Of a stretch of DNA of 64,000 nucleotides, positions 20,152-22,104 are shown piece after piece; within the stretch, counting starts at the first letter, position 1; each line of letters starts with the position of its first letter. The stretch lies in contig CAMDJW010000003.1 of NCBI GenBank assembly GCA_945901025.1, forward strand, positions 107,337 through 171,336, read 5' to 3'. The translations under genes and the position numbers were made by a program. The notes beneath the pieces are model-generated. The model was not told the DNA's origin. It did no database searches and saw only the letters and a program-made list of their open reading frames with translations. This DNA comes from Spirosoma fluviale. Lineage in GTDB: Bacteria; Bacteroidota; Bacteroidia; Cytophagales; Spirosomataceae.

Positions 20152-22104
20152 ATGATCGTATCCACACCGGGCCGAATTTGTTTATTTGGTGAGCATCAAG
20201 ATTACTTAGGTTTACCTGTTATCGCAGCTGCAATTTCGAAGAGAATACAGATTAAAGGCCAATTTAGAGCTGATAACGTGGTGCATTTTTCATTGCCTGA
20301 TGTGCAAAAAACAGAAGAATTTGAAGTCGATTTTCCTTTAGAATATTCCAAAGAACGGGATTATTTTAAAAGCGTTTTGAATGTTTTGCATCGAAAAGGC
20401 CACGAGTTAACACGTGGATTTGAGATCGAGGTTCGTGGAAATATCCCGATCAATTCTGGCACATCAAGTTCCTCAGCGCTTTTAGTTTCTTGGGTGAAAT
20501 TCCTCAATGACATGTACGGTTTAGGATATACGCAAAAGCAAATTGGCGAAATAACTTATGAGGCCGAGGTTCTGGAATTTACGGAACCTGGTGGCATGAT
20601 GGATCAATATTCAACGGCTGTAGGGAATGTGATTTACCTAGCAAGCCAATCCGAGATTTCGATTAAGACCTATGCCCGAGATTTGGGGACCTTTGTTTTA
20701 GGGGATTCTTTGGAGGCAAAAGATACTTTAGGGATTTTATCCCGGGTAAAATTTGGAACTTTGGGAGGTGTAAATAAAATTAAGGAGAAAGATCCGAGTT
20801 TTGATTTGTCTACTGCGACGCTTTCGGATTTGAATGAACATAAGAATTTGATTATGAAGGATGAATATATTTTAATTAGTGCGAACATTGACGACCGGGA
20901 TATTTTGTTGGCCGCCAAAGCGATGTTTGAAGAAGAAGTGGAATGGAGTGATGAAAAATTAGGCGATTTATTAAATCAGCATCAACAAAATTTACGTGAA
21001 CATAAGCGTATTTCAACCCCTAAAATAGATCGAATGATTCAAGCTTCGTTAGATTCGGGTGCATTGGGAGCTAAGATTAATGGTTCCGGTGGGGGAGGTT
21101 GTATGTTTGCCTATGCGCCAGAAAATCCAGAAAAAGTAGTGGAGGCCATTGAAAAAGAAGGGGGTAAGGCTTACATCATACGCGTAGACAAGGGCACCCA
21201 TTCAGAAACTGAAAGTTTATTTTTTAATACATATATGAAAAAGCGTTTATTGATATTAGCAGGAGGGATGGCCTCAAGGATGAAGAAAGCAATGGCTGAA
21301 GGGGGTTCAGATTTAGATCCTTCCTTGGTAGCCCAAGCAAATTCAGTCACCAAAGGGATGATTCAGGTAGGTAAGAATGGAAAGACATTGATTGATTATC
21401 AATTATATAACGCGCATTTAGCTGGGATTGAAGAGGTTATGTTATTGCTTCATCCTACGGATACGGTATCCCAAGAATATTGTGAATCGCTGATGGAGAA
21501 GGATGCGTGTTGGGGTTTACAAATTGTCTTTGCGCGCCAACAAATTCCTGCGGATCGGGAGAAGCCAGCTGGAACTGCGGATGCGGTATATCAAGCATTA
21601 ATGCAGCATGATTCTTGGCAAAAGGGGCGCGTAATCGTTTGCAATTCGGATAATTTATACAGTGTAAATGCCCTTAAATTGCTATGGTCATCGACTGAAA
21701 CGCAGGCATTAATTTCCTATCATCGAGATAGTTTATTGTATCCTGCGGAGCGGATTTCAGCTTTTGCTTTAATTAGGACTGATGCGGATGGTTATTTATT
21801 GGAGATTATCGAAAAGCCTACGCAAGAACAAGCGGATGAATTAATGGCTCAATTGGGCCGATTGGGTGTCAGCATGAATATTTTCGTCTTTGAGGCGAGT
21901 ACTTTTTTACCTTATTTAGCAGCCACGCCTTTTCACTCGGTTCGCAATGAAAAAGAATTGCCTACGTCGGTGGCTATGTTTGGCGAGGGAACAGGAAAAG
22001 GTTTTTACGCCATTCCATTAGCTGAAAATGTACCGGACCTAACGAGCAAAGAGGATATTTTGGTGATGCAAAAATACCTTGAGGAGACGTATGGGGATTT
22101 TTAA
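20152..22104 (+). CDS. GHMP (galactokinase-like) kinase fused to a sugar-phosphate nucleotidyltransferase
   Basis: N-half PGRICLFGEHQDY, PINSGTSSSSA, GAKINGSGGGG; C-half from codon 362 LILAGGMASRMKK, GTADAV, NSDNLY. Confidence 0.85.
   Translation: MIVSTPGRICLFGEHQDYLGLPVIAAAISKRIQIKGQFRADNVVHFSLPDVQKTEEFEVDFPLEYSKERDYFKSVLNVLHRKGHELTRGFEIEVRGNIPINSGTSSSSALLVSWVKFLNDMYGLGYTQKQIGEITYEAEVLEFTEPGGMMDQYSTAVGNVIYLASQSEISIKTYARDLGTFVLGDSLEAKDTLGILSRVKFGTLGGVNKIKEKDPSFDLSTATLSDLNEHKNLIMKDEYILISANIDDRDILLAAKAMFEEEVEWSDEKLGDLLNQHQQNLREHKRISTPKIDRMIQASLDSGALGAKINGSGGGGCMFAYAPENPEKVVEAIEKEGGKAYIIRVDKGTHSETESLFFNTYMKKRLLILAGGMASRMKKAMAEGGSDLDPSLVAQANSVTKGMIQVGKNGKTLIDYQLYNAHLAGIEEVMLLLHPTDTVSQEYCESLMEKDACWGLQIVFARQQIPADREKPAGTADAVYQALMQHDSWQKGRVIVCNSDNLYSVNALKLLWSSTETQALISYHRDSLLYPAERISAFALIRTDADGYLLEIIEKPTQEQADELMAQLGRLGVSMNIFVFEASTFLPYLAATPFHSVRNEKELPTSVAMFGEGTGKGFYAIPLAENVPDLTSKEDILVMQKYLEETYGDF

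Follow-up and report, generated by a model that had tools for sequence, protein, structure and literature searches.

The stretch of DNA analysed here (the window; 64,000 nucleotides of contig CAMDJW010000003.1 from Spirosoma fluviale, assembly GCA_945901025.1) carries at 20152..22104, on the plus strand, a single open reading frame (ORF) of 650 codons, whose 650-aa product joins a galactokinase-like kinase of the GHMP superfamily to a nucleoside triphosphate (NTP)-transferase. The question raised by this locus is whether the ORF encodes an evolved bifunctional enzyme that converts a free sugar into a nucleoside diphosphate (NDP)-sugar, or whether two neighbouring genes have been merged. The best explanation, which we consider probable, is that a recent slippage event involving a single T fused a two-gene cassette.

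The 650-aa product consists of a GHMP kinase (aa 1-358), an N-T-Y junction and an NTP-transferase (aa 362-650), corresponding to the following features:

20152..21225, plus strand: galactokinase-like GHMP sugar kinase, recognised by three Pfam domains and equivalent to the whole of a 358-aa stand-alone gene in relatives.
21214..21234, plus strand: junction, AGT TTA TTT TTT / AAT ACA TAT, with a run of six T's (T6) at 21220-21225.
21235..22104, plus strand: sugar-1-phosphate nucleotidyltransferase, recognised by the Pfam domain NTP_transferase and equivalent to the whole of a 288-289-aa stand-alone gene in relatives.

The initial annotation, made from the sequence alone, had described a kinase and an NTP-transferase joined in frame, and this is confirmed by the 650-codon ORF and by four Pfam domains, all above their gathering cut-offs: GalKase_gal_bdg (aa 2-32), GHMP_kinases_N (aa 71-158), GHMP_kinases_C (aa 268-337) and NTP_transferase (aa 399-588). 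The AT-rich linker agtttattttttaatacatat is present at 21214-21234, with A or T at 19 of its 21 bases, and the in-frame ATG that had been noticed at 21235 is the usual start codon of the transferase in every relative.

Comparison of this junction with those of related genomes pointed to a single missing base. The window reads AGT TTA TTT TTT AAT ACA TAT ATG, with six T's, whereas the nearest relatives read AGT TTA TTT TTT TAA, with seven T's (T7) and a stop after residue 358. In the two closest genomes of the genus (about 88-90% DNA identity over the ORF) T7 is followed by TAA, and the transferase ATG lies 6-7 nt further on, so that loss of one T from T7 removes the TAA and at the same time brings the downstream gene's own ATG into frame. 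The residues N359-T360-Y361 (AAT ACA TAT) are the former TAA and spacer read one base out of step. Two genes were found at all 27 related junctions read (21 genus genomes and six metagenome contigs) and, in the first 14 congeners sampled, a kinase ORF of 358 or 351 aa with its own stop is followed by a 288-289-aa transferase starting MKKRLLILAGGM. Junction alignments gave T7 + TAA in eight genus genomes and in the six metagenome contigs, TTT TAT TAA in seven genomes and an ATGA stop/start overlap in eight genomes, the last two being the arrangements of the more distant congeners. When the 64 species genomes of the genus were all surveyed, 13 others had this junction type, eight of them T7 + TAA and five TTTTATTAA. 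Across this survey and the metagenome contigs, which were scanned for the junction pattern with any length of T run permitted, T6 was found in the window alone. All six contigs have T7, and in five of them the spacer AATACATATATG is identical to that of the window; in total, five contigs and three genomes match the window junction exactly save for one T.

A database search agreed with the junctions, its best 73 matches being kinases of 357-382 aa that extend over only the first 55% of the 650-aa query. No fused orthologue was found among the 21 genus genomes read, the six metagenome contigs and 13 phylum-level orthologues. As judged from these alignments, the fusion is best described as the loss of one T from the T7 run that holds the kinase stop codon, specific to one genome. 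The one-protein route evolved as such, which was the main inference of the initial annotation, is not borne out, since a stop at the linker separates two genes in each of the relatives read, while the fused operon that its title offered as an alternative was the right description. Of the two observations proposed there as arguments against a bifunctional enzyme, a stop at the linker in relatives was indeed found, but an inactive domain was not, the catalytic motifs being kept in both halves.

Because all relatives read are split and the nearest differ at the junction by one T, the fusion is read as derived and very recent. Consistent with this, in a quick maximum-likelihood tree of kinase domains the kinase of the window nests within the split-gene clade of its genus, as sister to the 358-aa stand-alone kinase P0001 (support 99), with an end branch of 0.027. 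P0001 is also the nearest database match, 95% identical to the kinase half, and the transferase half is 100% identical to a stand-alone 289-aa protein (P0121) recorded on three other contigs. Judged by the nearest proteins in the databases, the host would be an Aquirufa-like freshwater bacterium of the Cytophagales. On this comparison the ORF appears to be a very recent fusion and not an established bifunctional enzyme.

These observations suggest the following course of events. The ancestral locus would have comprised two translationally coupled genes, the first encoding a galactokinase-like GHMP kinase for ATP-dependent phosphorylation of the anomeric hydroxyl of a galacto-type sugar, and the second a GlgC/RmlA-type nucleotidyltransferase converting the sugar-1-phosphate and an NTP into an NDP-sugar. 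As in close relatives, the kinase would have ended ...TTT TTT TAA inside T7, with the start of the transferase 6-7 nt later. One T was then lost, most likely by a real and very recent slippage mutation in the strain or lineage, and the product would now be a 650-aa chain in which three novel residues (N-T-Y) lie between the complete kinase and the complete transferase, with a disordered tether of about 12 residues joining the two intact domains. Because both domains are intact and so joined, the fused protein would most likely still perform both steps, and some free transferase may still arise from the internal ATG, initiation at 21235 being plausible.

That the deletion lies in the DNA itself we judge to be likely, and the most direct challenge to it is that the organism has T7 and two genes, one T having been dropped when the bases were called or the consensus was built. 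In favour of this, only one base of a homopolymer differs, none of the 27 other junctions read has T6, and the identical transferase exists as a stand-alone 289-aa product on three contigs. Against such an artefact, the identical 650-aa protein is recorded (NCBI, ENA, Logan) from more than one source and on two contigs, the longer of 410,053 bp and that of the window of 212,237 bp, so that a second assembly carries T6 too. In addition, when window 7621-23824 (about 16 kb) was compared with eight related sequences, the T-run deletion was the only indel inside a coding frame, the remaining indels being intergenic or within the last few codons of a gene. The genome of the window has a completeness of 98.56%, open frames of at least 150 codons take up 91% of it, and the sequence gives no sign of pervasive homopolymer error in the assembly. 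We therefore consider an artefact unlikely, although far from negligible. Several points nevertheless weigh against a real deletion that yields a working salvage enzyme: a 7-to-6 homopolymer change is a classic type of sequencing or assembly error, the same reads could have been assembled anew into the second contig with the fused protein, and the stand-alone record P0121 indicates that near-identical DNA with the split arrangement exists. Furthermore, the predicted fused protein might fold wrongly, be unstable or assemble incorrectly, and GHMP kinases and NTP-transferases are usually oligomeric.

If T6 is taken as real, it could instead belong to a dedicated one-protein route from sugar to NDP-sugar that is maintained by the lineage. 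In favour of this are the intact state of both domains, the established same-order fusions of other lineages and known bifunctional salvage enzymes such as FKP (PMC11982464) and the zebrafish glucuronokinase/pyrophosphorylase (PMC3938481). However, the genus and the closest metagenome contigs hold no fused relative, the ORF is one base away from the split state with its spacer otherwise unaltered, and its position inside a split clade, on a near-zero branch, leaves too short a time for selection to act, all of which makes a selected enzyme highly improbable. The T run might also be a regulated slippery site or contingency locus that toggles between split and fused forms, by programmed recoding, transcriptional slippage or phase variation. 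A T7/U7 run with a stop could in principle yield occasional transcripts one base short, and homopolymers are mutational hot spots, but 15 of the genus genomes read have either an interrupted run (TTTTATT) or none at all (ATGA overlap), and all 14 run-bearing sequences have exactly T7, where a phase-variable tract would scatter in size. Programmed frameshifting, transcriptional slippage and phase variation were accordingly rejected, as the T run is not conserved in the genus and is always exactly T7 where present, and we give such a regulated site almost no weight. A chance slippage mutation remains the preferred explanation, and the joining or separation of neighbouring genes by indels in short repeats has been documented (PMC1501019).

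Both halves of the fused protein appear competent. Their catalytic positions are kept by 38-42 of about 40 family members, and an AlphaFold2 model of the 650-aa protein (alignment of 69 sequences) had a mean predicted local distance difference test score (pLDDT) of 92.4 and a predicted template modelling score of 0.62, with the kinase mostly above 90. The pLDDT fell below 50 only at residues 359-361, the new junction, and in loop 381-384. The model is thus suggestive of two well-folded domains on a flexible tether. No sign of an inactive domain was seen in the sequence, and we infer that both halves are active. The domain assignment of the initial annotation, and the chemistry it proposed (sugar to sugar-1-phosphate to NDP-sugar), were judged to be right.

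In the profile search of the 650-aa protein neither half reached an NCBIfam equivalog cut-off, the best scores being to mevalonate kinase and galactokinase models for the kinase half and to GlgC models for the transferase half, all far below threshold. In the kinase, the Pfam scores were 34.6 bits for PF10509 (cut-off 23.1), 57.4 bits for PF00288 and 45.8 bits for PF08544, and it aligns end to end with the galactokinases of Pyrococcus furiosus and Lactococcus lactis. The galactokinase N-terminal signature G-R-x-N-L-x-G-E-H-x-D-Y is present (R8, G13, E14, H15, D17, Y18), as in 41-42 of 42 family members, and so are motif II (P-x-x-x-G-x-S-S-S-A; P99, G103, S105-S108), the Gly-rich motif III (G311-G316) and the catalytic Asp of M/L-D-Q (D151). 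The EHQDY motif pointed out in the initial annotation reads G13-E14-H15-Q16-D17-Y18, and its Q is the family norm, found in 34 of 42 aligned kinases. The catalytic residues that are kept include Arg R8, the E-H-x-D-Y sugar-binding motif, the Ser-rich phosphate loop and D151 in G-G-M-M-D-Q.

Foldseek, for which the matches listed are those of the kinase half, placed the Pyrococcus galactokinases 2CZ9 and 1S4E at the top (E about 1e-27, target TM 0.88), followed by human GALK1 and L. lactis GalK and, lower, by GalNAc kinase and mevalonate kinases. Although R, E-H-x-D-Y, the Ser-rich loop and the M/L-D-Q catalytic Asp are shared with 1S4E and 2CZ9, identity to the kinase of the window is only 21-23%; moreover, galactokinases have an S-x-Y-N-x-R segment where this kinase family has K-D-T, and its motif III (GSGGGGC) resembles that of mevalonate kinases. 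A canonical GalK equivalog was ruled out by the scores to TIGR00131 (111.9 vs 226.65 bits), NF003006 (118.3 vs 443) and NF003705 (102.1 vs 385). By these sequence comparisons the kinase is assigned to a galactokinase-like branch of the GHMP superfamily and not to GalK proper.

The transferase half scored 54.2 bits to PF00483 (NTP_transferase; gathering score 21.2) and conserves L-A-G-G-x-x-S-R376, K401, KPxGTADA at 471-478 (G474-T-A-D-A478), D500, E554-K555-P556 and S574-M-N576. It aligns with the catalytic domain of ADP-glucose pyrophosphorylase, keeping K-P-x-G-T-A-D-A, the catalytic D500 (N-S-D-N-L-Y), E-K-P and S-M-N-I-F. GlgC itself was ruled out, since TIGR02091 scored 49.6 vs 424.9 bits and the 289 aa align with the catalytic domain of GlgC only, lacking its C-terminal left-handed β-helix.

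The pair of genes from which the fusion arose is widespread. A kinase orthologue was found in 13 of 300 genomes sampled across the phylum (40-53% identity), in none of them fused. The pair is old, translationally coupled and conserved across Bacteroidota. The transferase lies directly downstream of the kinase in 12 of the 13, often with a 4-nt ATGA overlap; besides the transferase, these 13 cassette genomes showed no further conserved neighbour. Two genes flank the fused ORF in the window:

22155..23468, plus strand: GntP-family permease, 50 nt downstream of the fused ORF (GntP_permease 469 bits, TIGR00791 475 bits).
18995..20137, minus strand: membrane protein, distantly NagX/HGSNAT-like (NCBIfam NF046061 NagX, 67 bits vs a cut-off of 480 bits).

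Within the genus, GntP comes after the cassette, and an M(S/T)(I/L)... ORF follows the transferase in most genus loci that are long enough, while distant cassette genomes have SSF or MFS transporters in its place. Given that the link with GntP is confined to the genus, it remains a hint towards a sugar acid and was not taken as a conclusion. The neighbours in distant genomes, variable but consistent with one another, include GH35 β-galactosidases (in one case with a 4-nt overlap with the transferase), a GH2 β-galactosidase and a GalE-type epimerase. Also seen were a GH123 β-N-acetylgalactosaminidase and GH20 hexosaminidase, Na+/solute symporters, fucosidase/GDSL proteins and a NagB/PIG-L protein. 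The cassette often adjoins galactose (Gal), N-acetylgalactosamine (GalNAc) and fucose glycosidases as well as sugar symporters, which suggests that it salvages a glycan-derived, galacto-configured sugar to an NDP-sugar. The sugar is most likely Gal or GalNAc, with L-fucose or a uronate as possible substrates.

The gene content of the genome is of interest in this respect. In the 98.56%-complete genome of the window no match to GalT (PF01087) and no canonical GalK were found, the kinase of the fused ORF being the only galactokinase-like gene, and GalE is present (412 bits). Other cassette genomes have canonical GalK in 4 of 13 cases and GalT in 7 of 13, and the idea that the cassette simply replaces the classical Leloir genes was rejected for this reason. 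In the control set of the tool, Bacteroides thetaiotaomicron matches the GalK model and not the GalT model, and GalT-independent handling of galactose may be common in Bacteroidota. A literature search found no paper on the kinase/transferase cassette.

Other fusions of the same two domains do exist. A sensitive search against 1.8 billion representatives returned, among the best 150 matches, two end-to-end fusions in the same order, P0162 (631 aa) and P0208 (637 aa), whose 90% clusters have 13 and 71 members, nearly all of full fused size and on many contigs. They group together on the kinase tree, far from the window, and are 31-34% identical to it. P0162 and P0208 are, on sequence grounds, taken to be real, established fusions in metagenomic lineages and, because the kinase of the window nests in a split-gene clade far from them, independent of the event in the window. 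A third same-order fusion, P0074 (578 aa), is a singleton and stands separately on the tree. Neither P0162 nor P0208 is named in any source, and both have their domains in the reverse order to FKP and the zebrafish enzyme DrGKUP. A literature search for natural fusions of a kinase followed by a pyrophosphorylase found no paper, returning only the reverse-order FKP and DrGKUP and the route through GalK and UDP-sugar pyrophosphorylase (USP). Kinases of the same family were also seen joined to other domains in NCBI records, namely to a Macro domain in P0139 (531 aa, two members) and to a NagB/6-phosphogluconolactonase-like domain in P0197 (615 aa, singleton); these may be hints at substrates or gene-call artefacts.

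Among known systems, the closest parallel is FKP of Bacteroides fragilis (L-fucokinase/GDP-L-fucose pyrophosphorylase; PMC11982464), together with plant FKGP, in which a GHMP sugar-1-kinase and an NTP-transferase also convert a free sugar into an NDP-sugar within one polypeptide. FKP, however, is a conserved fusion of about 950 aa in which an N-terminal pyrophosphorylase precedes a C-terminal kinase, whereas the protein of the window has the kinase first, 650 aa, a galactokinase signature and a one-base accident found in no relative. The opposite domain order of FKP, mentioned in the initial annotation, agrees with the match of the kinase at 717-803 of the 974-position FKP model and at residues 697-777 of the 949-aa 5yys. 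Zebrafish DrGKUP (glucuronokinase/putative UDP-glucuronic acid pyrophosphorylase; PMC3938481) likewise serves nucleotide-sugar salvage by combining a GHMP sugar-1-kinase with a short nucleotidyltransferase of bacterial type (about 260 aa), but in the order pyrophosphorylase then kinase and as a fusion conserved across lower animals. The sugar-acid permease GntP of the window would fit a uronate substrate such as that of DrGKUP, although the GntP link does not extend beyond the genus.

In plants and Leishmania, galactokinase and USP, together with UDP-galactose 4-epimerase (PMC9306886, PMC4722067) similarly use an anomeric GHMP kinase followed by a pyrophosphorylase, with no GalT, and the genome of the window, with GalE but neither GalT nor canonical GalK, offers a parallel. 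Unlike that route, the transferase of the window is a 289-aa GlgC/RmlA-like domain and not of the eukaryotic USP/UAP type, and half of the cassette-bearing genomes also have classical GalK and/or GalT. The AmgK/MurU module for salvage of N-acetylmuramic acid and N-acetylglucosamine also pairs an anomeric kinase with an NTP-transferase, as two proteins. AmgK, however, is a kinase of the aminoglycoside-phosphotransferase type and not a GHMP kinase, and among solved structures MurU gave no sequence match to the transferase half. An analogous two-step route is formed by human GalNAc kinase GALK2 and UDP-GalNAc pyrophosphorylase.

A more ambitious reading, which we put forward tentatively and with somewhat less than even confidence, is that T6 is real and encodes a working 72-kDa kinase-transferase, a gene fusion caught at birth and one base from the split state. 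It would repeat a fusion long fixed in at least one uncultured lineage, in an order opposite to that of every characterised bifunctional salvage enzyme, and, separately, the GEHQDY-kinase/transferase cassette would be a GalT-independent salvage module of Gal/GalNAc type widespread in Bacteroidota. For annotation purposes, it would be wrong to carry the ORF forward as a 'bifunctional enzyme' family, as it represents kinase and transferase genes that one missing base has merged. A real deletion would provide a clean natural example of how one slippage at a homopolymer stop codon turns operon neighbours of the same pathway into a fusion protein, and the older, fixed fusions of the same pair elsewhere indicate that such an outcome can be kept. 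The more useful lead is the cassette, an uncharacterised but conserved pair of sugar-1-kinase and pyrophosphorylase that occurs next to glycosidases for Gal, GalNAc and fucose.

The surroundings of the fused ORF showed some further features. Between it and gntP, at window 22109-22145, there are 5.3 tandem copies of the 7-mer AATACCT, and at the same spot close relatives have longer arrays of the reverse-complement 7-mer (AGGTAAT/AGGTATT) or unrelated hairpin repeats (L003, L019, L022, L002, L009); the spacer 3' of the transferase is a hot spot for small repeats that varies from strain to strain. Repeats of a GC-hairpin unit (GACGCGATAC-T-TCGCGTC-like) lie at about 13499-13600, with a copy-number difference of 32 nt relative to metagenome contig L018. 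The unit, of which L002 has two copies downstream of the transferase, looks like a small element, similar to a repetitive extragenic palindrome or a miniature inverted-repeat transposable element (REP/MITE-like), moving within the genus. The minus-strand gene at 18995-20137, divergent from the kinase and a possible functional neighbour, encodes a 380-aa multi-pass membrane protein for which no Pfam match was found. Its listed GTG start lies only 14 nt from the kinase ATG, and for this reason its true start is probably a downstream ATG.

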